A DNA stretch of 64,000 nucleotides from Escherichia phage JacquesWildberger_Bas92. Shown piece by piece: positions 33,113 to 64,000 of the stretch. Numbering within the stretch: the stretch's first letter is position 1; every line of letters starts with the position of its first letter. Under the pieces are notes generated by a model, which searched no databases, was not told the origin of the DNA, and saw only the letters and a program-made list of their open reading frames with translations. The DNA is taken from the sequence record PQ850610.1; one strand, 5' to 3'. The position numbers were made by a program, and so were the translations under genes.

Positions 33113-33505
33113 TCATCGAATCACCAAAGGCTCTTCAGAGTACACAGGAGCGGCTATTTCTACAGGAGGTGCTGCCCTAAGGTCATTAAGTCTTACTCCC
33201 TTCAGCATCCCATCTAGGTGGTCCTTTTTGGGTATTCCAACAGGGAAGTCGTCAATCCAGATATCTACAAAGAAACCTAACTGGCGACATACGTCATCTT
33301 TCTGAACACCATTGCAAAAGATGATAGGAATCTGCAAACGCTCTGCATCAATCTTAATGTCATGATTATCATACCCATTAGGCTCTGCAAAGCGATAAGT
33401 TACAAAACGTACATCATAACCTTTGGCTTGCATTAATGCCACCACAGATCGCCACAGCTCTTTATCTGAGGTGTAAGTATCATCGTAATCTAAACCAATA
33501 TTCAT
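33113..33505 (-). CDS. HAD-superfamily phosphatase-like protein (possible nucleotidase)
   Basis: N-terminal DxDxT motif (LDYDDTYT) and later DD motif (VDIWIDDFP). Confidence 0.4.
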   Translation of the reverse strand: MNIGLDYDDTYTSDKELWRSVVALMQAKGYDVRFVTYRFAEPNGYDNHDIKIDAERLQIPIIFCNGVQKDDVCRQLGFFVDIWIDDFPVGIPKKDHLDGMLKGVRLNDLRAAPPVEIAAPVYSEEPLVIR

Positions 33506-33518
33506 GTTGAATCCTTTT

Positions 33519-33546
33519 AGACAAGAAAAGCCGCCCTAAGGCAGCT
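33519..33546 (-). terminator. terminator-like hairpin
   Basis: on - strand GCTGCC-ttag-GGCGGC followed by ttttctt. Confidence 0.4.
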
Positions 33547-34105
33547 TCTTATTTAACTATTCACTTTAGCTTCAAGTGTTTCATTTTCAATACTCAAGTC
33601 AATCACTACGCCAGTAAGCTCAACGACTGCTTGGCGAAGGGCGTCTTTACCCATAGAATGTACTTGAGATAAGAAGAAAGCTTTACCTTCTTCCGTGGAT
33701 AGGGTTTCTTTTAATTCAGAAGCAGTCATTGATATTCCTTATTTTACATTGTATAAATTCGCATGATTGTACCACCATCAGCTTCAATAGCAGAAACAAC
33801 TTCATCTCGTTCTTCATCCGTGTACACTAGTACGCTTTTAAACGAGCCAGTCACATCTGTGTACAAAATGTTGTACTTGGGAGGTGGTTTACGGTAAATA
33901 CCTTCCATCATTCTTTCTCCTCTCGTTCTTTCCACAGTTCAGCAAGCTCTAGGTAGAACTCAGCTTCATCAGGACGTCCTTGTTCATTACAGATGGCGCT
34001 TTGACGATAACACCAATCTGATGGCATCTCTTCCACTTCAATCTCCTTATTATGAACTAATCAATAAGACTAGTTCATTTGTATTTCAATCTTTCAGTTC
34101 TGAAT

Positions 34106-35950
34106 TTAGTGTGTATGCATCCAGTTTAACCCAATCTGACAATCAGAAGCCAGAGGACATTCCATGTTCAAGTACTCACCAGCCTTCTTAACACAAAGCT
34201 CGGTGTACTCTTTGAGTTTCTGTACATCATTACGGTTCACTGAGAACTGGCCCTCATCGTGCATATCAATTACCTTAGCACAACGAACTCCATCTTTCTC
34301 AATCCACTTGTTAAGGAACATCATAGCATATTTCATAACAACAGCACCAGCACATTGCAGGAGTGTGTTAAGGGCTTTATGAACCATAACCTTACCAGTG
34401 GCATCCCGTCTCATTGTAATCTTACGACCATCAACGCCAATCAAATACCCTTGAGCAGCTTTCTCTGTCATACGATCAATGAGGATTGCAATACATGGGT
34501 TCTCTGCCAAGAAGCGTGCTCGCATCACTGAACCTTCGTCAGCTCCACCACCTACGATTGAACCAAGCTTAGCATCACCAGCACCATAGTTAAACGCGTA
34601 GATAAACGTTTTAGCGTTGTCACGAGTAGGAAGACCAGCAAGTTTCTGGTTGTGGGAGTGGATATCACCTTCAAGAAGGATATCACGATACATAATAGCA
34701 GAAGCTAAACCACGTTCTGCCAGAGCTTTCTTAGCTGGATTATTCTCTTCGATTGCTTCAGCAAGCATATCCCTACACTCTTTAATGAGGTAGTGAGCGA
34801 GCATACGAAGTTCAAGTCCAGAACCATCATACCCTAAGAATACTTCTTTACCAGCGGGTATGTAATATTTGTAAGCACCTACAGGCTTATCTTTCTTCCC
34901 CGGCTTACCTTTCTCGTAAATTACGTTAGTACCTTTTCGTATATAACAACCATCAGGAACAACGTTAGTAATAACGAAAGGACGAGAGTGATCACTGTCT
35001 GAATTATAGTCAGACTCAAACAAACTGCGACACTCATGACCAAACAAACCACGGGAGGGAATATTAACCACGATACGATGTTTGAATCGAAAAGTTGGCG
35101 TAGCGCAGCTGTTAGCTTCTGCCGAAAGTTTACCATCTTCGCGTTCCTTTGCTATGAGTCCACTGATAAGACCTAGCCTGTGAGCCGCTACAACGCGCCT
35201 CTTAAGCAAACTTCCAACACTCCCTAGCTCGCCCCCTAACCCTTCTTCAAGAGTCTCCTCGAGGTTTGTAGGAGCTGTAGGCCACTTGTTTGAGGTAGCT
35301 AGTGCTATCTTAATCTCATCAAACGTGATAGGTCTACTTCGGTTAGGGTTTAAACCTAAACCAAACACATAAGCCTTCATATAGTTCTTAGTCTTAAACC
35401 TAAAATGCTTCTCTAAGAACCTCCTAATATCTGCGTCAACCATCTCGGCTGTCTGCTTCTGTTTAGCATTACCTCGCATCCAAGCTGAATACCATGCTTG
35501 GTATGTCCCATACTTTCGAATATCTTTCTTGATTTCAAAAGTATTCCAAGGTTTCTTTGATACGTTAAACTCTGGAGGAAGAAAACCCTCATCCATAAGG
35601 GCTTCTTTAACTCGTGCATCTTTCGATGGGTCAAAGTCTACATACTCAACACAGGTGAATGCTCCACCAATGTCTTCTCTCTTAAGGCCAACTCTATCAC
35701 AGTAGGCTTGAGGCCACTTCTGTAAAGCTCCAGACTTCTTAAATGGCTTCATATAAGTAGAGCCATCTAATCTCATCTTAGGTAAGAGAGGGATCAGTTC
35801 TTTGTCGATATTAACAATAATCTCTTTAAGGAGGTGAACATACCACCGAGCATTTCTTCGGTTGAAACTCACTCCGTGCTTCGCTTGCTTAGAGATTATA
35901 TCAGCGACAGTCATCTCTGTCAAAAATGGGAGAGCGTCCGGGTTGCTCAC
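34106..35950 (-). CDS. DNA polymerase, family A polymerase domain (no exonuclease domain)
   Basis: motif A DGSGLELR, motif B RDNAKTFIYAFNYGAG, motif C HDEGQF. Confidence 0.85.
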   Translation of the reverse strand: MSNPDALPFLTEMTVADIISKQAKHGVSFNRRNARWYVHLLKEIIVNIDKELIPLLPKMRLDGSTYMKPFKKSGALQKWPQAYCDRVGLKREDIGGAFTCVEYVDFDPSKDARVKEALMDEGFLPPEFNVSKKPWNTFEIKKDIRKYGTYQAWYSAWMRGNAKQKQTAEMVDADIRRFLEKHFRFKTKNYMKAYVFGLGLNPNRSRPITFDEIKIALATSNKWPTAPTNLEETLEEGLGGELGSVGSLLKRRVVAAHRLGLISGLIAKEREDGKLSAEANSCATPTFRFKHRIVVNIPSRGLFGHECRSLFESDYNSDSDHSRPFVITNVVPDGCYIRKGTNVIYEKGKPGKKDKPVGAYKYYIPAGKEVFLGYDGSGLELRMLAHYLIKECRDMLAEAIEENNPAKKALAERGLASAIMYRDILLEGDIHSHNQKLAGLPTRDNAKTFIYAFNYGAGDAKLGSIVGGGADEGSVMRARFLAENPCIAILIDRMTEKAAQGYLIGVDGRKITMRRDATGKVMVHKALNTLLQCAGAVVMKYAMMFLNKWIEKDGVRCAKVIDMHDEGQFSVNRNDVQKLKEYTELCVKKAGEYLNMECPLASDCQIGLNWMHTH

Positions 35951-35966
35951 TTTATACTCCTTTAAA

Positions 35967-36389
35967 TTATTGGTAAAGTAAATCTGTAAATGCTTGGTTG
36001 TCTTCTACTACATCTAGCAAGGTTGCTTCGTTACTATAAGACCTAACCGTCCCGTTGACAACTGTCCGAGTAGGAGAGGGAGGTGGTGTATGGTTAGCTC
36101 TAGCTTCGCGAGGTTGCTCTCGTACTAAATGAGCCATAGCCATTTGGTTAGCGACTTCTTCTCTTTCTCGAATAGCTCTCTGAATATAAGCTAGCTTCAT
36201 GCCCCAAGCTTCTTCAAATTCTTGAGGATGTTTGTCACTGATAACCACATATTGACGTTCAGGGATACCAGAGCGAATCTCTGATAAGAGTTCACAGAAC
36301 AAATCCAGTTCGTGTTCAGTGAGATTCATTTCGATATCATCCCACTTGAGAACTAGGAAACGGTTTTGATATCTAGTCGGTAATGGCAT
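35967..36389 (-). CDS. hypothetical protein
   Basis: 140-aa ORF. Confidence 0.35.
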   Translation of the reverse strand: MPLPTRYQNRFLVLKWDDIEMNLTEHELDLFCELLSEIRSGIPERQYVVISDKHPQEFEEAWGMKLAYIQRAIREREEVANQMAMAHLVREQPREARANHTPPPSPTRTVVNGTVRSYSNEATLLDVVEDNQAFTDLLYQ

Positions 36390-36392
36390 AGC

Positions 36393-36647
36393 TTAACCTT
36401 TAGGGAATGGGATGAGGTTTTCTACTGCAACACGGAATTCTTTCTCTACATCTTTATTCTTATAAGAAATAAATTTCCCATCAGCACCACGGAGGATTAC
36501 GTTAGTACGAGCTGTTTTTGGGTTATGACTGATTTGGTTTGCAATGAGACTAATGTTGAGTTTAGTGTTGTGGTTATTGGTGAATTTCCACTTAGCCAGA
36601 CGATTAGTCATTACATCAATGATAGTTACAGTTTTTACAATAGACAT
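36393..36647 (-). CDS. hypothetical protein
   Basis: 84-aa ORF. Confidence 0.35.
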   Translation of the reverse strand: MSIVKTVTIIDVMTNRLAKWKFTNNHNTKLNISLIANQISHNPKTARTNVILRGADGKFISYKNKDVEKEFRVAVENLIPFPKG

Positions 36648-36681
36648 AGTTATTACCTAAGAAGTTTAGTTTGGTTTATAT

Positions 36682-36709
36682 AAAAGAAAAGGCCACCCAT
36701 TTGGGTAGC
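36682..36709 (-). terminator. rho-independent terminator
   Basis: on - strand GGCTACCC-aaat-GGGTGGCC followed by ttttctttta. Confidence 0.45.
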
Positions 36710-36715
36710 CTCATA

Positions 36716-37033
36716 TTACGATGAGCTTAAAGCTCCTTTGCGTGCTCCAGCTGCCTTCCCAGTTCGATCTCCACTTTTGCCGCCAGCTGAACGATTTCCG
36801 CTGACTGTTTCAACACGTAAGTTGCTTGACGCATTAGAGCCTCCTGACTTGATAGCTCGTTTGTGTCCAACGTCTTTACCTCTGACAGCAGCTTTTCCAT
36901 CGCGCTTTTCAACGATGCGACGTGCACGGTGGCGCTGAGCATCTCCGCTCTTGCTACCAATTCCCGTTTCACCCCTTGCGATGGCGGTACGTCTTTCTTG
37001 TGCATAATCTCTCTTTCCTACATGGTCTGCCAT
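36716..37033 (-). CDS. basic Gly/Arg/Lys-rich protein (possible nucleic-acid-binding)
   Basis: strong SD taaggag 6 nt upstream; TAATGTATA element upstream; low-complexity basic composition. Confidence 0.45.
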   Translation of the reverse strand: MADHVGKRDYAQERRTAIARGETGIGSKSGDAQRHRARRIVEKRDGKAAVRGKDVGHKRAIKSGGSNASSNLRVETVSGNRSAGGKSGDRTGKAAGARKGALSSS

Positions 37034-37069
37034 TTAGAACTCCTTAATATATCAGTGTACACTAAGGAG

Positions 37070-37078
37070 TATACATTA
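37070..37078 (-). promoter_or_regulatory. TAATGTATA promoter-like element
   Basis: exact 9-mer on - strand 37 nt upstream of ATG 37033. Confidence 0.5.
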
Positions 37079-37087
37079 TGAATGATG

Positions 37088-37333
37088 TTAAAACTCTGCT
37101 AAGTATTTAATATCAGAGGCATATACCTCATCAAAGGAAATAATTTCTCCATTGTAAAGAAGTTCTATCTTCAATATACCAGAGCATTTGGTGTCTTTAG
37201 AATCAACCCTGATAGAGAGCTTATCAACTATCTGAGCTTTAATCTCTTCTATCATTAACTCTTGAGTGTTATTCACTCCACCCTCCCGGTGGTACAAAAT
37301 CATCAGGAACGTCAATGATAGTAGGTTCTCCAT
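37088..37333 (-). CDS. hypothetical protein
   Basis: 81-aa ORF. Confidence 0.3.
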   Translation of the reverse strand: MENLLSLTFLMILYHREGGVNNTQELMIEEIKAQIVDKLSIRVDSKDTKCSGILKIELLYNGEIISFDEVYASDIKYLAEF

Positions 37334-37454
37334 TATTCATGCAGGTGTCTTCATTGAACTCTTCACACTCAAAGCATGCTCGTTCGATATTTTTGTAGAA
37401 GTCGATGGTTGCTGAACCATCACCACAATCTCGGATAACTAGAGCTACTTTCAT
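37269..37454 (-). CDS. small acidic Cys-rich protein
   Basis: 61 aa, CGDG...CFECEEF...C pattern. Confidence 0.3.
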   Translation of the reverse strand: MKVALVIRDCGDGSATIDFYKNIERACFECEEFNEDTCMNNGEPTIIDVPDDFVPPGGWSE

Positions 37455-38194
37455 TTCTCTTGTCCTTTTTCCATTGCTTTAACAATAGCTTTACAGAAAC
37501 CAGAACGAACAATGTCATCTGATTCACCATCTACAATCTCAGCGAACTCATACAGATCATGTTCATCAATAAAGTTAGTAGCCCAAGTAAGACCACTCTC
37601 ACGACCACGCATGTCATGCTGGTTAGTATCACCCATGCAGAACAGTTGAGAGGTTTCTCCCAATCGAGTCATGATTGAGAAGGCTTCATCTTTAGTGGTG
37701 TTCTGGAATTCATCAACAATAACAACAGCATCATTGAAAGAACGACCACGGAGATATTCCAGAGGTACGAACTCAATATTACTGTTACCAAGCTGGCATT
37801 CATAGAACCCCTTACCATATCGCTGAGTAATAACATCGATGATAGGCATCAGGTATGGTTCAAACTTCTCACGCATCCCTCCCGGAAGTAACCCAAGAGA
37901 GTTGCCCATACCAACTGAAGGACGGCTAAGAATGATCTTCTGAATCTTACCACTCTTCAGAGCATCGATAACTGTAGAAGTGATTACATAGGTCTTACCA
38001 CAGCCCGCAGGAGCGTCTGTGAACACCACTTGTTTAGTCTTGATAGCATTGAGTAGCTCAGATTGAAACTGATTCTGAGGAACCACTGGCTTCGCTAAAA
38101 CAACCTCTTCATACTCACGCTTACCTTTCTTAGTGACCAAGGCTTCACGACGTAAATCTTTACGAGATTCTCTACGGGACTGTCTACGGCTCAT
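37451..38194 (-). CDS. phoH: PhoH-like ATPase
   Basis: Walker A TDAPAGCGKTYV and PhoH-like downstream motifs. Confidence 0.8.
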   Translation of the reverse strand: MSRRQSRRESRKDLRREALVTKKGKREYEEVVLAKPVVPQNQFQSELLNAIKTKQVVFTDAPAGCGKTYVITSTVIDALKSGKIQKIILSRPSVGMGNSLGLLPGGMREKFEPYLMPIIDVITQRYGKGFYECQLGNSNIEFVPLEYLRGRSFNDAVVIVDEFQNTTKDEAFSIMTRLGETSQLFCMGDTNQHDMRGRESGLTWATNFIDEHDLYEFAEIVDGESDDIVRSGFCKAIVKAMEKGQEK

Positions 38195-39911: not shown

Positions 39912-40092
39912 CTTATGCAGTCAGGAGGTGAAGCAGGAATGGGATAACAACAGCTACGACAACCATGATAGTTGATGCTGTTTGAATCTCACCTTTCTTG
40001 TCAGGGGTTTCTTCGATAAGCTTACCAGAAGCCCAATAGATACCACCACCAATAAAGATAGCCCAAATACCCCATACAATAGCTGATAACAT
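39912..40092 (-). CDS. small two-TMD membrane protein (59 aa)
   Basis: MLSAIVWGIWAIFIGGGIYWA ... IMVVVAVVIPFLLHLL; below track cutoff. Confidence 0.3.
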
Positions 40093-40149
40093 ATATTCAT
40101 ATCCTTATAAATAGAAAACCCCGTCTATTCCTAGACAGGGCTTGAGTTT

Positions 40150-40761
40150 TTAGTAAGACACATCACCACTTGAGTGGGACATGTTGCTCTTGACGAAGTA
40201 GCAATACTTGCCAAGACCTTCATTGATTTCTTGAAGCATACTTTGATCGACTGGATAAGTGGCTAAATCGCCATCAAACTCATCCATCTTCTCAATAATA
40301 CACATCAAGGTCATGCACATATCAGAGAGCATACCGTCCATGTCTAGATCAGCGTTACCCTCTGAGAACCAAGCATGAGAGAGGTAGTTAGCTGCTGTAG
40401 CATCCACTTTAACACAGTGGTAACGCATACGTTCAGCAATACGATCTCCTACTTGTCGTGCGTAATCTTCCAGCTCGTCAAACATACCATGAACACCCTG
40501 AAATCCTGCACCAGAGACGTTCCAGTGGTAGTTTTTAGCTTTGATGTGCAAGAGTTCCATATTAGCTTGTAAGCAGCTCAGGATGTGTTCTAGGCTGTTT
40601 CCGCTAATCATGCCTTGCATTGTTTCAAGGCGAGAGATTGAAAGCTCAGACCGGTCTAACATGCTGTAGCTGTCACGACCAATCTCAGGTAAATCAAAGA
40701 CATTCTTATGCATTTGGGTTTTCTCCATCAAGTTCAACTGAGTTAGCAACGTTACGTGCAA
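40150..40761 (-). CDS. Dps/ferritin-like protein (true start probably internal, ~40713-40728)
   Basis: HWNVSGAGFQGVHGMFDELEDYARQVGDRIAERM matches Dps ferroxidase-site region; C-terminal FVKSNM similar to Dps. Confidence 0.6.
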   Translation of the reverse strand: MHVTLLTQLNLMEKTQMHKNVFDLPEIGRDSYSMLDRSELSISRLETMQGMISGNSLEHILSCLQANMELLHIKAKNYHWNVSGAGFQGVHGMFDELEDYARQVGDRIAERMRYHCVKVDATAANYLSHAWFSEGNADLDMDGMLSDMCMTLMCIIEKMDEFDGDLATYPVDQSMLQEINEGLGKYCYFVKSNMSHSSGDVSY

Positions 40762-41035
40762 TATTGTCCATTACCTGCTGGGTAATTACGATGCAGTTCT
40801 GTGGGTCTACTGACTTAGAACGCCCCATTTCTGGGTCATACACCTTAACACGCTTAGCAGTTGAACCTGTAACCTGAAGAACCTTCAACAGATATCCCTG
40901 ATTACCGATAGACCAAGCAACAACATCACGATTCTTGATAAAGCGACCAAGCATATCACGATGATAAAACTGTTGCATCACCTTGGATTTTGTAATCTCT
41001 TCAGTGGGCGGGGCCACTTTACTCAAATCTAACAT
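40706..41035 (-). CDS. hypothetical protein
   Basis: 109-aa ORF; near-match promoter element (aaatgtata) upstream. Confidence 0.35.
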   Translation of the reverse strand: MLDLSKVAPPTEEITKSKVMQQFYHRDMLGRFIKNRDVVAWSIGNQGYLLKVLQVTGSTAKRVKVYDPEMGRSKSVDPQNCIVITQQVMDNIARNVANSVELDGENPNA

Positions 41036-41107
41036 AACTCTCTCCTGTAAAATACAAACTCTTATTGTACTCTATATACATTTGAGAGTTACCATATCTA
41101 CTACCAA

Positions 41108-52066: not shown

Positions 52067-52873
52067 TTATGCTACCTGAAGGCGTTTAATCTGCTGGTCC
52101 GCTTCTTTAACGTTATTACCGTTAATGATTTCATGAAGCTTCTCAATCGGAAGGCGAGAGTGCAATGCCATCAGAGTGGACATGTCACACTGCTGAACAA
52201 CCTTGTCAACCTGATCATAAACAAACTTACGGTTTTCACGATCACTAATCCAGAAGTTAGACAGGGAACGATATTCAATACCATAGTCCTTGTAGCGGAT
52301 TGCAGATGCTTTACCGTAGAGTTCTTTACGGCGAGTGTCTTTATCCATAATAACTGCTGGGAGGGATAGGAAGTAGTCACACAGCACACCCAGCATCATC
52401 TGAGTTTGCAGGGTGATATCCAAAGCACCAACTACGCCAAGATGTACGTGACCACCGGCAGTACGAAGCCCCTTATTTTGAGAAGTCGGGGATGGGTTCT
52501 TCTGACCAGTGAAAGCGTTGAAATCAGGAGTACATCCAAAGATGAACGCTGATTCATTGAAAGTCTTCATCTCTTCTTCAGTGAAGATGTGAGAGCTAAC
52601 ACCCGGAGCTGTTTCCATGTCCAGTTTGTTCAGGACATTATTGGTGAGATCGATACCACGTTGCATGTTGTCATTAAACGCTTCAAAACCACTCTGTGGG
52701 TCAATATCAAACTCAGCCAGTACGTTGTCCTCTTGAAGACGAACATCCTTAGCCAGAGCGATCTTATCGTCCTTAGAACAACCTAACAGACCAGCTACAG
52801 AAGTGATGATTCCTTTGCTGGTACGAACGAACATTTCCGGATCCGATCCTATTAAGAATTTGCGCTTAGTCAT
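52067..52873 (-). CDS. second GS-like amidoligase-like protein
   Basis: LIGSDPEMF and GGHVHLG motifs parallel the ExE/HxH pattern of upstream amidoligase. Confidence 0.4.
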   Translation of the reverse strand: MTKRKFLIGSDPEMFVRTSKGIITSVAGLLGCSKDDKIALAKDVRLQEDNVLAEFDIDPQSGFEAFNDNMQRGIDLTNNVLNKLDMETAPGVSSHIFTEEEMKTFNESAFIFGCTPDFNAFTGQKNPSPTSQNKGLRTAGGHVHLGVVGALDITLQTQMMLGVLCDYFLSLPAVIMDKDTRRKELYGKASAIRYKDYGIEYRSLSNFWISDRENRKFVYDQVDKVVQQCDMSTLMALHSRLPIEKLHEIINGNNVKEADQQIKRLQVA

Positions 52874-53837
52874 TGTAATACTCCACTAGTTCAGAAAAGA
52901 GAGATGAGATTGTGTTACCGATTTCTTCAGGATTAAGACCAGAATCTATTCCAGTACGCTGAATTATTCGTGCTGTAAAGTTTTGTACTGTAATGTTTTC
53001 CAACTTATTATCTATTGCTTCACGTTTGTGACCATAACAGTTGGACCAGAGTTTTAACCACTCTGACATTGTTTCATACTCATCTGGATCTTGATCTTTA
53101 GCACGAGCAAATCTTCGTAAGACATCTGTGTTGTGGTTACGAACATAACCATTCTCGTTGTCACCAACACCGAAGGGGTTTTGAACCCATACTTGCTTCG
53201 TGTATTCATCAGAGTCAACAACCAAAGGAAGGAATGCTGCTGCTGACATATTGTTGTCAATAACAACAGACGTGCTTTCACTACTCCCATTGGAAGCTCC
53301 TCGTTGAGACCACCTACCAAAGAAGTCACGACCCAACCCAGCTAACAACAGAGCGATGCCAATGCGTTTACGCTTCAGCCACTCTTCCCTGTCTTCAATT
53401 CCTTCTGCTAGGAAATCCATTCCACGATACTGCCCTTCCAAAATGCTACGGAAGAGCATAAGTCCTGTGAAGATTTGATCTGCTGGATGCTCACGGAGGT
53501 TGACAGCTACGCTATTCGCTGAAGTGATTGTGAATACATCGCGATAGCAAGACATGGAGTTCATAATATCTGCTGTTTCAACCAAGTTCTTTTCAATATA
53601 AGATGCATCATGACCGTGAAAAGAGTGAGTCCAGTAATTCAGCATCTCCAGTTGCAAGTTGATATCACGGTTGAAGCGTCTATAACGCCCCTCTTCCATG
53701 ATAACTTCGCCATTAATATCGCTTACACATTGGCCTTGCATGTAGTTGTGAATACCGAAGCACCCACGACCTAAGAACTTCTGTTCCCCTAAATCTTGTT
53801 GAAGATTCAGAGGTACGATCGTTGTGGAGATTGACAT
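52866..53837 (-). CDS. hypothetical protein in ligase cluster
   Basis: 323-aa ORF, overlapping stop/start with neighbours. Confidence 0.35.
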   Translation of the reverse strand: MSISTTIVPLNLQQDLGEQKFLGRGCFGIHNYMQGQCVSDINGEVIMEEGRYRRFNRDINLQLEMLNYWTHSFHGHDASYIEKNLVETADIMNSMSCYRDVFTITSANSVAVNLREHPADQIFTGLMLFRSILEGQYRGMDFLAEGIEDREEWLKRKRIGIALLLAGLGRDFFGRWSQRGASNGSSESTSVVIDNNMSAAAFLPLVVDSDEYTKQVWVQNPFGVGDNENGYVRNHNTDVLRRFARAKDQDPDEYETMSEWLKLWSNCYGHKREAIDNKLENITVQNFTARIIQRTGIDSGLNPEEIGNTISSLFSELVEYYND

Positions 53838-53847
53838 AACTAACCTT

Positions 53848-55044
53848 TTATTTTCCTAAAAATAATCCGCTCATAATACCATCCCACTCAGAGGATGGAA
53901 TCACTGAATACTCCGAACTTTGGTCCAGAGTTCCACTACTAAATCTCTGAACAATGTTATAGATGTTGAACAGGTCTTTAGCCTCAGTACGGATACCGTA
54001 GACTAATTTATCAGATGTTCTTTCATCTTTAGATACCCGACGAGCAAAATTAACCAGAAGGTTGTCACATTTAAGCGTTTCTGACCCACTCTCTACCAAA
54101 TCAGGGTGCATCACAGGCAAGAACATCGAGTTATTGACTCGCAACTCTGCTGTTTCGTCATTCTCATAATGAATCCACTTAAAGTCTTCATCACGGAAGT
54201 GACCACAACCGTCTCTGTACGACTGCTGACGCCAAGGCACTTTAAATGCTTTAGCATACTTATCAGCCATGCCAACTGTAAACAACGACGCTGGGAAGAT
54301 GCAAGCATCCCAATCATTACCGACCAGAGTTGCTTTCGTTTCACCCAAGAGGTTAGTATAAGTGCTAATCATTCGGGAATAAATATAAGCCTGAAGGATT
54401 GTCCAACCTTCAATCAACCATTTATGAAGGAAGGTTTCAACTTGACTCTCTTCGTCTTCGCAATAGAAGGTTCGGTCTAGCATTAAATAGAACAGACAAC
54501 GATCAGCAGGGATGTTCTCAGTTGCTACACCCATAAAACCTTTCTCGTGCCAGCGTAAACAGGAGGGACGATCTTTGTCCACAAATGCTTCCATAGCTTC
54601 CAGTACAGCACGAGGTGAGGTTTGGTATTCAGGGTTTTTACTATTCCAACGATCAATGTTGTTCTTAGGAGGTGTGTCTTCATCTTCATACGAACACCAA
54701 CTTAAAGCTTCAGATACGTGCTTTTCATCACACCAATGCCTAAAACCTAACATCTTCATGTGAGTTCCGGAGTTCCAGATATGCTTGATTTTACACATAT
54801 CCATCTCTCGGCTTAACAGGAACTCTTCCCCATCAGCGCTACGAACGTTAGCTTCTTCATTCCACACTCGAACGTGCATATTCCACCCATAAGTTGCCTC
54901 ATACGTGTTAGGGTCGAAGTATTCATATTCGTCATCATCTTCATCAACGCCACCGTTATAGTTGCGGAGCTGAAGGAATCCATAGCAAGGAGGATAGACC
55001 GTTAAAACTCTACCTTCAATATCTTCTAATGTTACTGGAAACAT
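53848..55044 (-). CDS. hypothetical protein in ligase cluster
   Basis: 398-aa ORF, Trp/Cys/His-rich. Confidence 0.35.
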   Translation of the reverse strand: MFPVTLEDIEGRVLTVYPPCYGFLQLRNYNGGVDEDDDEYEYFDPNTYEATYGWNMHVRVWNEEANVRSADGEEFLLSREMDMCKIKHIWNSGTHMKMLGFRHWCDEKHVSEALSWCSYEDEDTPPKNNIDRWNSKNPEYQTSPRAVLEAMEAFVDKDRPSCLRWHEKGFMGVATENIPADRCLFYLMLDRTFYCEDEESQVETFLHKWLIEGWTILQAYIYSRMISTYTNLLGETKATLVGNDWDACIFPASLFTVGMADKYAKAFKVPWRQQSYRDGCGHFRDEDFKWIHYENDETAELRVNNSMFLPVMHPDLVESGSETLKCDNLLVNFARRVSKDERTSDKLVYGIRTEAKDLFNIYNIVQRFSSGTLDQSSEYSVIPSSEWDGIMSGLFLGK

Positions 55045-55055
55045 TATACCAACCT

Positions 55056-62201: not shown

Positions 62202-62411
62202 TCAACCAAGTAAACCAAATGATTTCCAACTACGCAGTAAGATCGTACCATCATCCATAGTTACGCATAATTTTAGTAGTCGCTTACTGGTACTGCTCAC
62301 CGTTGTGATTCGTCCGGTTGTGCATTTACCTTTATTGCTATAAAGATATATAACACGATGGCCTAACAAACGAGATGGCGCTTTCTTAAATTCTGAGATG
62401 TTAGTGATCAT
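62202..62411 (-). CDS. hypothetical protein with RLLGHRV motif
   Basis: 69-aa ORF, paralog-like motif. Confidence 0.3.
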   Translation of the reverse strand: MITNISEFKKAPSRLLGHRVIYLYSNKGKCTTGRITTVSSTSKRLLKLCVTMDDGTILLRSWKSFGLLG

Positions 62412-62629
62412 TATCCATATACCTTAACATGATTGATTCGACGTGAATGATGATAAGAAGACTCAACAGCCATTGCCTTTAATTCTTCTTTTCGTTGGTT
62501 AGTGTGTACAATATCCCAATGATTATGATCGTGTTGGCGCTGTAATATCTTACTACATTTGCGATGGTTTCCCGTGCTGCGACGTTTCTCACAAATAGGA
62601 CACTTGCCAAAATTATTACTGAATATCAT
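62411..62629 (-). CDS. small zinc-finger / HNH-like protein
   Basis: CPIC ... HRKC ... QHDHNHW. Confidence 0.3.
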   Translation of the reverse strand: MIFSNNFGKCPICEKRRSTGNHRKCSKILQRQHDHNHWDIVHTNQRKEELKAMAVESSYHHSRRINHVKVYG

Positions 62630-62853
62630 TTTCTCAATCCTAACTTTCTTAAGACACGGCCTAACGTTGTTTCTTGGGTGATAATATACCTGACCGCTTC
62701 ACGTTCCAACGTTTCAATCTTCATTGGCGACGGATACCATTCACCGGTAAGCATACACCTATACTCAACGCCATACTTTTTAGATAGGCGGTAATGTTGA
62801 CCGTTGATAAGGTTCCTATAAATCGTGGTATGCGTCGTTAACATAATCGTCAC
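62626..62853 (-). CDS. hypothetical protein
   Basis: 75-aa ORF. Confidence 0.3.
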   Translation of the reverse strand: MTIMLTTHTTIYRNLINGQHYRLSKKYGVEYRCMLTGEWYPSPMKIETLEREAVRYIITQETTLGRVLRKLGLRK

Positions 62854-62956
62854 CTTTGATTAGATTCTTTGATTAGTACACTGAATCAATGCACTGATAA
62901 AAGAAAAGGCGCTACCCGTTAAAGATAGCGCCTCATGTTTATTTAGATTGTCTTAC

Positions 62957-63865
62957 TTATGCCGCCTGACGTGCCGCCATAATTTCAGCCGCTTTACGCA
63001 ATACTTCTTCCTCTTCTGCTTTCGCCGCTTGTTCGGTACGGGTAGCAACCGTTGAAGAGATACGACCGCGCAGACTTTCTAACTTCTCTTGCATAGCTGC
63101 GATGGTCTTTTCCATTTCATCAGCGTATGAATCCAGTGATTCCAATTCCTTGCTTGATGCGTTCATCAGATAATCATCCGAGATCGCTACCGTTGAGGCC
63201 GTCACTTTCTTGATGAGTGAGTCGAATGACTTCTTAACCTTGCCGACTTCTTCACTTAAGGCAATAGTGTTATCACTGGTAGCGCCGTTGCGCTCATCGG
63301 CCAACAATTTTGCTTCAATACGGATTGCATTCAAGCGTTCAACTAAAGCGTAAATATCCTGATTAAAATCTTCCTTGTTTTTCGCCGGGATTTGCAGATG
63401 GGCCGCCACGTTGTCATTGCAACCTTTATAAAAGTTAGGATTATCCACTTCAATTGCACGACCTAAAGCAAAATTCTCGAAAGCATTCGACCAGCGAGCG
63501 CGGTTTTGTTCCATTTTGGCCTTAATTTGCGCTTCTTTCGCATCTTCTTTCGCTTTCGCCTCGCCTTCCAGATTAATCCATTTTTTACGACCGTTCGCCG
63601 CCTCGGTGTTAAACTTGATTGGAGTTAAGAAAGTAATTGCAGTGGCAATAACATCCATATCGCGGAAACGTTCAGTTAACAGAAAATCGACCGCCGCTTG
63701 CAATACATCTAACTTTTTACCGTTGCTGCGAAAGTGCTGCAAATGCCCTAAAAGGAAGTTAGAAACATCTTGTTTAATCGCCGCGTTATTTTTGCGGATG
63801 TTGTTTGCCAGCGCGTTAAAACCGGATTCTTTTACCAGATTAAAAACTTTAGCCATGATATTCAC
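62957..63865 (-). CDS. hypothetical coiled-coil protein
   Basis: 302-aa ORF, higher-GC than phage core. Confidence 0.35.
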   Translation of the reverse strand: MNIMAKVFNLVKESGFNALANNIRKNNAAIKQDVSNFLLGHLQHFRSNGKKLDVLQAAVDFLLTERFRDMDVIATAITFLTPIKFNTEAANGRKKWINLEGEAKAKEDAKEAQIKAKMEQNRARWSNAFENFALGRAIEVDNPNFYKGCNDNVAAHLQIPAKNKEDFNQDIYALVERLNAIRIEAKLLADERNGATSDNTIALSEEVGKVKKSFDSLIKKVTASTVAISDDYLMNASSKELESLDSYADEMEKTIAAMQEKLESLRGRISSTVATRTEQAAKAEEEEVLRKAAEIMAARQAA

Positions 63866-64000
63866 CTTTCAATTATAAGGGCACTATTGCCCCGCTCGCT
63901 ATGAGCTTTTAAGCCATTATTGACTTAGCTATAGTCACTCACTAATAAATAACTATAGGTAAGCGGAGCGGTCTTATCAGGAGTTAACCTTGCCGCTCCC

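Follow-up and report, generated by a model that had tools for sequence, protein, structure and literature searches.

Escherichia phage JacquesWildberger_Bas92 encodes a divergent Dps-family mini-ferritin that is very probably a functional ferroxidase, to judge from its residues and predicted fold. The gene lies within 64,000 nucleotides of the phage sequence (PQ850610.1, hereafter the window), which come from a phiEco32-like podophage with a genome of about 69 kb. Motifs around it predict a compact two-gene unit that is driven by a phage sigma factor and has Dps as its distal cistron (Table 1). We propose that the protein would detoxify H2O2 and Fe2+ while the phage replicates, and hold this model as a whole to be reasonably likely.

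Table 1. Features of the predicted gp68-like–Dps unit, in positions of the window
Feature	Position	Strand	Basis or description
Phage-sigma (phiEco32 gp36-type) middle promoter element, AAATGTATA	41075..41083	-	consensus match
gp68-like gene, first cistron, 109 aa	40706..41035	-	SH3/KOW/Tudor-like small beta-barrel (predicted)
Shine-Dalgarno GGAG of the Dps cistron	40726-40723	-	within the end of the gp68-like gene; read from the sequence
Dps-family mini-ferritin CDS (probable extent)	40150..40713	-	187 aa + stop; phiEco32 gp67 homologue
Acidic N-terminal extension, 40 residues, clade-specific	40594..40713	-	tail comparison with sister clades
Ferroxidase-centre segment, residues 63-94	40432..40527	-	alignment to E. 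coli and L. innocua Dps
Intrinsic-terminator-like hairpin, 12 bp, GGAA loop, then UUUUCUAUUUAU	40106..40143	-	terminator scan

Results

Profile, PDB sequence, fold and residue evidence all place the gene in the Dps family. A preliminary description made from the letters of the window had proposed a phage-encoded Dps/ferritin-like protein from the motif HWNVSGAGFQGVHGMFDELEDYARQVGDRIAERM; the translation of the minus-strand frame 40150..40761 carries this motif exactly, and the identity is borne out. The Pfam family PF00210 (Ferritin) matched the 203-aa frame with E=2.9e-07 and 30.9 bits (gathering cut-off 24.5), over residues 71-122 alone, the catalytic helix region, and PHROG 3636 matched 146 residues with E=3e-55. 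Dps-family chains made up about 55 of the 60 PDB matches listed by phmmer (best E=3e-09), led by M. smegmatis Dps2, B. subtilis MrgA and B. anthracis Dlp-2, and the few non-Dps entries among the 60 lay near E=1. The NCBIfam equivalog model for E. coli Dps (NF006975) scored 34.5 bits against a cut-off of 114, which leaves the protein outside that group. With Pfam and NCBIfam matches that are partial or weak, the gp67-type Dps is by its scores a divergent member of the family.

The phage Dps reads as an old gene of the phage lineage. Chains of E. coli Dps were among the most distant PDB matches (phmmer E=0.14-0.22), which argues against a recent capture from the host. An exhaustive HMMER search returned 3418 relatives at E<=1e-3 and only 7 at E<=1e-30. 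One oddity, P0032, is a 1156-aa protein with 20 matched stretches in tandem repeat and is uninformative.

The protein carries the complete inter-subunit ferroxidase set of five ligands and a tryptophan. With residues numbered from ATG 40713, H63, W64, H75 and D79 lie on one subunit face and D90 and E94 on the partner face. A MAFFT alignment compared the protein with the Dps sequences of E. coli and L. innocua. The alignment pairs the residues (phage/E. coli/L. innocua) as H63/H51/H31, W64/W52/W32, H75/H63/H43, D79/D67/D47, D90/D78/D58 and E94/E82/E62, a map consistent with the HMMER alignment to 1dps. Ligands and W64 are invariant in 14 homologues of 48-82% identity and also in 16 diverse sequences comprising 7-11, Privateer, GAP52, LAh_8 and metagenomic representatives. 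By homology we infer a 12-subunit shell with ferroxidase activity.

The predicted fold is likewise that of Dps. The AF2 monomer model (pLDDT 80.5, pTM 0.72) is a four-helix bundle (residues 41-65, 71-98, 125-150 and 154-176) with the short BC-loop helix typical of Dps (107-112) and no fifth C-terminal helix, and the best 50 Foldseek matches in the PDB were all Dps or Dps-like, at target TM-scores of 0.73-0.92. The preliminary description had named a missing ferritin-like fold or unconserved ferroxidase residues as what would speak against the identity; the Dps fold is both predicted and matched, and the residues do not vary among homologues. We also considered a 24-mer ferritin or bacterioferritin, with its intra-subunit di-iron site and E helix, and rejected it because ligand pattern and helix count are Dps-type. 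No 24-mer ferritins appeared among the PDB sequence matches listed or the best 50 structural matches, apart from two special entries: 5xgo, a chimeric Dps-bacterioferritin fusion chain (E=0.19), and 3kwo, a Dps-like protein deposited as 'putative bacterioferritin'.

The gene is under strong purifying selection. Against phiEco32, dN/dS is 0.011 (20 synonymous differences and 1 non-synonymous), and between genera it is about 0.045, with dS saturated at that distance. Conservation reaches 78% in ferroxidase helix B and 75% in helix D, with 36-43% in the tails. Published mass spectrometry picked up the SU10 homologue, which is 97% identical, evidence that the protein is made.

Database records give the gene a conflicting label. 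Among the tblastn matches listed, 14 of 60 records call it 'integrase', as does P0004, and this frequency in GenBank is what favours reading the gene as an integrase. A Pfam scan at E<=1 returned Ferritin alone, and fold and residues are those of a Dps bundle, so we rejected a tyrosine or serine recombinase. The other form of this alternative, a decaying and functionless remnant, is excluded by dN/dS values of 0.01-0.05 together with the mass-spectrometric detection; between them, integrase and dead gene have a negligible probability. A defence or anti-defence family was also rejected, its PADLOC match being at chance level (E=0.012).

The coding sequence probably starts at ATG 40713, inside the TTG-started frame 40150-40761. 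Position 40761 is the first TTG after the upstream stop in the maximal frame. The GGAG stands nine nt 5' of ATG 40713, and translation from this ATG gives a protein (MHKN...) of 21.2 kDa, the same mass as reported for SU10 CDS67 (SU10 paper). The N-terminus MH(N/K)N.FDLP is kept in most homologues down to 52-55% identity, and the phiEco32, ECBP2 and EP335 records use the equivalent start. The Bas93 record uses an ATG at 40728, where there is no Shine-Dalgarno. Ribosome-binding motif, conserved N-terminus and three independent annotations favour ATG 40713 over both TTG 40761 and ATG 40728.

Sequence motifs delimit a predicted transcription unit of two genes. Its putative promoter element lies within the 72-nt gap 5' of the gp68-like gene, with one mismatch to the published gp36-sigma consensus tAATGTAtA; the form CTCAAATGTATATA is invariant and in the same place in phiEco32, ECBP2 and EP335, making four genera in all. 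The 9-mer element alone is not over-represented within the window. A scan for sigma-70 promoters gave no site 5' of the unit, and its total count was lower than that for shuffled sequence. Six gp36-dependent promoters were found experimentally in phiEco32, with gene 68 among the six downstream genes, according to the summary in PMC8948821. In the present phage the element presumably acts as a promoter too.

The two genes are packed tightly and end at a candidate terminator. Dps begins within the end of the gp68-like gene, the two sharing 8 nt (ATGCATAA), an overlap also present in phiEco32, ECBP2 and EP335. Seven nt past the Dps stop begins the hairpin, with an MFE of -17.8 kcal/mol (z=-3.95; 0/200 shuffles fold equally well). 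The same three phages have a hairpin at the equivalent position with a partly different stem sequence. Promoter element, overlap and terminator together make Dps the predicted distal cistron.

The unit sits in a nucleotide-metabolism module, flanked in the window by genes for thioredoxin, ThyX and dCTP deaminase. Six distant gp68-like loci on metagenomic or genomic contigs share the order primase/helicase, (polymerase exonuclease), dCTP deaminase, gp68-like. Four of them continue with Dps and then the anaerobic RNR gene NrdD, and the other two go directly to NrdD with no Dps; Dps is therefore dispensable in some relatives, and the gp68-like gene belongs to the synteny block and not strictly to Dps. 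This weakens the idea that the gp68-like protein is an obligate Dps partner, and its KOW/Tudor/SH3-like barrel is too generic a fold for a function to be assigned. The order dCTP deaminase, gp68-like, Dps, NrdD recurs in GAP52 with a full-length NrdD and in Privateer with a short NrdD-like fragment; LAh_8 has a full-length NrdD, with NrdD/NrdG upstream, and 7-11 has none in the stretch examined. Lactobacillus phage Dps genes likewise adjoin DNA-metabolism genes. The neighbourhood could be inherited synteny and not a functional link.

Such company also suggests that Dps might not be a detoxifier but an iron store and donor, buffering iron for the nucleotide enzymes that need it when dNTP synthesis surges. 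Iron would go to the di-iron subunit of the class Ia RNR of the host; in relatives, the Fe-S activase that serves phage NrdD would be a further recipient. NrdD follows Dps immediately in GAP52, Trabzonvirus APT65 and several metagenomic relatives; in LAh_8, NrdG lies close to Dps. Yet the present phage has neither NrdD nor NrdG and keeps its Dps under strong selection, and the adjacency of NrdD and Dps may itself be inherited synteny. Dps proteins are not known to serve as dedicated iron donors. We consider iron donation distinctly unlikely and continue to favour detoxification.

The protein lacks the Lys/Arg-rich DNA-contacting tail of the E. coli Dps type at both the N- and the C-terminus. 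Its N-terminal extension, with the motifs MH(N/K)N.FDLP and S..RL(E/D).M, contains 4 K/R against 6 D/E (net -2) and is conserved at 36%, compared with 78% in the catalytic helix; the nine-residue C-tail SHSSGDVSY has no K or R. Among sister-clade phage Dps the tails measure 9-18 residues with net charges of +2 to +3, and that of E. coli Dps is +3. The whole subunit has a net charge of -15 and a pI of 4.72, where 143 Dps representatives average -8, and its Met and Cys content is 10.7% against 4.6 +/- 1.9% in those representatives. The statement in the preliminary description that Dps binds DNA does not carry over to a protein with no basic tail, a net charge of -15 and a pI of 4.7. On its composition, the label 'DNA-binding protein' is unsupported for this acidic, tail-less clade variant. 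Because there is no basic tail and the subunit is acidic, we infer protection through iron and H2O2 chemistry and without direct coating of DNA.

The alternative is a physical shield, with Dps covering or compacting either the phage DNA as it replicates or the nucleoid of the host. The family name suggests it, most database records say 'DNA-binding protein', and the short tails of sister-clade phage Dps are basic (net +2 to +3). The tails of the present protein are not, however, and conservation peaks at helices B and D and not in the tails. Several tail-less acidic Dps, L. innocua Dps for example, do not bind DNA. The AF2 model has an extra low-confidence helix at residues 21-37 of the N-extension, so there is a slight chance of binding by some other mode; in Lactococcus lactis, an N-terminal helix is reportedly required for Dps to bind DNA, which makes binding through the phage extension conceivable. 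On balance DNA coating is unlikely, and protection by iron and peroxide chemistry remains our preferred reading.

The gene is a regular component of a well-populated phage group. Over 3 kb around the gene, identity is 99.7% to Escherichia phage AidaStucki_Bas93, 98% to LAMP and about 94% to phiEco32, SU10 and many other Gordonclarkvirinae, and the protein is 100% identical to its LAMP homologue and 99.5% to phiEco32 gp67. By tblastn, Dps occurs in 136 of 50,697 phage records, 97 of them full-length; the DNA of the region is matched by 98 records, about as many as have a full-length Dps. The remark that such a gene is uncommon in small virulent phages is therefore misleading, given a phage of about 69 kb, 97 full-length records in its group and further copies in sister prolate (C3) clades.

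The gene is also already known, as a gp67 homologue discussed in the SU10 and Privateer papers. The phiEco32 record of 2008 already describes the counterpart there, phi32_67, as 'DNA-binding protein; member of the Dps family'. The genes CDS67 (Dps domain), CDS65 (thioredoxin) and CDS68 are among the few common to all five sequenced C3-morphotype phages, and CDS67 is placed among the middle genes (SU10 paper). In the literature searched we found no experimental study (activity assay, oligomer, mutant phenotype) of any phage Dps.

Discussion

The features described here suggest how the protein might act. The subunits would assemble by twelves into a hollow shell. At each two-fold interface, H63, H75 and D79 of one subunit and D90 and E94 of its partner would build a ferroxidase centre. 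In the Dps family, shell interfaces bind and oxidise Fe2+, preferentially with H2O2, and store Fe3+ inside. The phage centres would likewise oxidise Fe2+ with H2O2 as the preferred oxidant and deposit Fe3+ in the cavity, so that both Fenton reagents would be removed and the Fenton reaction suppressed. Transcribed in the middle phase from the phage-sigma promoter together with the gp68-like gene, and ending at its own terminator, Dps would be co-expressed with the enzymes of dNTP synthesis and replication. Hydroxyl-radical chemistry would thus be held down throughout the synthesis of phage DNA and dNTPs. The role against ROS that the preliminary description put forward is a reasonable proposal and agrees with the gene's surroundings.

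The position of the gene and the state of the host both offer a rationale for this model. ThyX is a flavoenzyme whose oxidase side reaction yields H2O2, and the NrdD of relatives is oxygen-sensitive, which together would give a local reason for a Dps gene at this place. According to PMC8948821, phiEco32 gp79 inhibits sigma-70 transcription; the OxyR regulon of the host (dps, katG, ahpCF) could then no longer be switched on, and the phage copy would make up for it. The same source describes phage 7-11 as having no host transcription shut-off, and 7-11 has Dps, which weakens the argument that the phage protein replaces a silenced OxyR response.

A different site of action would be the virion, with Dps in or on the prolate capsid, protecting packaged DNA or being delivered at infection. 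The Privateer homologue was found by mass spectrometry of particles from CsCl step and equilibrium gradients, in work that confirmed ten of the predicted virion proteins (Privateer paper), although a dense, iron-loaded Dps shell could, as we reason, band together with phage particles in CsCl. In SU10 the protein was detected in material prepared with PEG only, which contained DNA polymerase and thioredoxin as well, and the SU10 cryo-EM work names gp20-24 as head-internal ejection proteins with no mention of gp67 or Dps. Late genes are driven by the same phage sigma factor as Dps, according to PMC8948821, but the Dps gene lies in the replication module and not the structural one.

Encapsulins and fusion proteins bear on the same question. 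The HK97-fold encapsulins have ferritin-like cargo, an analogy that would suit a capsid Dps, and uncultured-phage proteins of 333-763 aa in BFVD that are named 'prohead protease' contain a Dps-like domain, the fusion being known from the BFVD names alone. Two long Dps-domain proteins from the exhaustive search, which lie on short contigs and are not BFVD entries, had no capsid or protease matches; one carries DUF6321 and the other two Ferritin domains. We regard association with the virion as improbable. A shade less probable still is its most specific form, that Dps of prolate (C3) podophages is a capsid-associated, iron-mineralising counterpart of encapsulin cargo and not just a cytoplasmic antioxidant; recruitment to the capsid would then possibly run through the N-extension or the co-translated beta-barrel gp68. 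Detoxification during replication is the reading we prefer.

As a discovery the gene carries little weight: it was recognised as a Dps homologue when the phiEco32 genome was published, and it belongs to the core of a well-sampled group. Our analysis contributes the corrected start codon, the anatomy of the predicted operon, the conserved gp68-like neighbour, the loss of the basic tail in this clade and the 'integrase' mis-annotation, through which therapeutic kuraviruses might be mistaken for temperate phages. Tractable E. coli phages (BASEL Bas93, phiEco32, SU10) would provide a convenient system with promoter, partner gene and terminator. That system suits the question of why lytic phages carry an iron and peroxide buffer beside genes for ThyX, thioredoxin and anaerobic RNR.

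Comparison with known systems separates close relatives from distant ones. phiEco32 gp67 (ABY52868.1), SU10 CDS67 and Bas93_0056 are the same gene with the same neighbours and the same 8-nt overlap with gene 68; the terminator of the window's clade is stronger than that of phiEco32 and has a canonical U-tract. In Grimontviridae/Lahexavirus, 7-11 gp073, Privateer gp068, GAP52 gp052 and LAh_8 gp125 share 31-45% core identity with the window's protein, identical ferroxidase residues and a similar nucleotide-metabolism module, with a gp68-like gene directly upstream of Dps in Privateer, GAP52 and LAh_8 but not in 7-11. Their Dps proteins have 146-156 aa with short basic N-tails, whereas that of the window has 187 aa and its 40-residue acidic extension.

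Cellular and other viral Dps proteins lie further away. Cellular dodecamers (M. smegmatis Dps2, 2z90; B. subtilis MrgA, 2chp; B. anthracis Dlp-2, 1jig; L. innocua Dps; E. coli Dps, 1dps) have the same four-helix bundle with BC helix and the same inter-subunit set of H, H, D / D, E and Trp, at 20-27% identity; compared with them the phage protein is richer in Met and Cys, more acidic and without a basic tail. Free-standing ferritin-like or Dps genes also occur in the lytic genomes of Lactobacillus phages LP65 and Semele, 'Gratiaviridae' gut phages, S-SRM01 and Bacillus phage G, and the authors who described them proposed a role against oxidative stress. With 15-27% identity and other contexts, they form lineages of their own: the Dps gene of Synechococcus phage S-SRM01, for one, sits among porin and tail-fibre genes.

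The Dps gene and its neighbours

The Dps gene, a homologue of phiEco32 gp67, is translationally coupled to the gp68-like gene that precedes it. The latter encodes a small conserved protein with a KOW/Tudor/SH3-like beta-barrel, and its setting recurs in relatives. It lies between dCTP deaminase and either Dps or the anaerobic ribonucleotide reductase NrdD in Privateer, in GAP52 and in all six metagenomic or genomic loci looked up, and in LAh_8 Dps sits directly downstream of it. On the other side, directly past the Dps terminator, a short ORF encodes a product with two hydrophobic segments that looks like a small membrane protein.

Positions of the Dps gene, its neighbours and two regions placed from the annotation of Bas93, a near-identical relative
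Feature	Position in window	Strand	Match or source
59-aa ORF, phiEco32 gp66 homologue	39913-40092	-	phrog_9296
Dps gene	40150-40713	-	
gp68-like ORF	40706-41035	-	phrog_10984
Split DNA polymerase I region	~33400-35950 (Bas93 35161-37711)		Bas93 annotation
Amidoligase-containing gene block, Bas93_0064-0075	~45670-55050		Bas93 annotation

The Dps protein has an unusually high methionine and cysteine content. Its 15 Met and 5 Cys residues make up 10.7% of the sequence, against 4.6 +/- 1.9% across 143 Dps representatives, and helix C carries a conserved Met/Cys-rich stretch, DMCMTLMC.

Database names for this gene are misleading. Among the matches listed, 14 of 60 GenBank/RefSeq records, ES17, CHD5UKE1, IME267 and KM01 for example, call it an "integrase", and Ferritin/Dps was the sole domain found in its product. 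The label could lead to therapeutic kuraviruses being mistaken for temperate phages.

Dps-like domains in other proteins

Dps-like domains also occur within larger proteins. Matches in the structure-model database BFVD place one inside uncultured Caudovirales proteins of 290-763 aa, whose entries are named either "Prohead protease" or "Dps"; by analogy with encapsulins, the former name hints that some ferritin-like domains may be targeted to capsids. Two long proteins with a Dps domain, taken from the sequence-search set, were looked up as well, and both lie on short contigs. A metagenomic protein of 1156 aa, recovered in the exhaustive HMMER search for Dps relatives, consists of a unit of roughly 60 residues repeated in tandem about 20 times; the unit matches the ferroxidase segment of Dps (profile positions 63-98). 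This protein is probably an oddity of repeats or of assembly.

Other regions of the genome

Annotation carried over from Bas93 draws attention to three further regions. About 2 kb of Bas93 (64130-66131; window ~62370-64000) is free of annotated features. In Bas93 the coding sequence of DNA polymerase I is given as a join of two segments, and the gap between them holds an endonuclease VII ORF; the gene looks to carry an intron or homing-endonuclease insertion. The amidoligase-containing block comprises amidoligase, COOH-NH2 ligase, glutamine amidotransferase-like, RimK-like ("S6 glutaminyl transferase") and gamma-glutamyl cyclotransferase genes, a content that suggests a module modifying peptides or metabolites.
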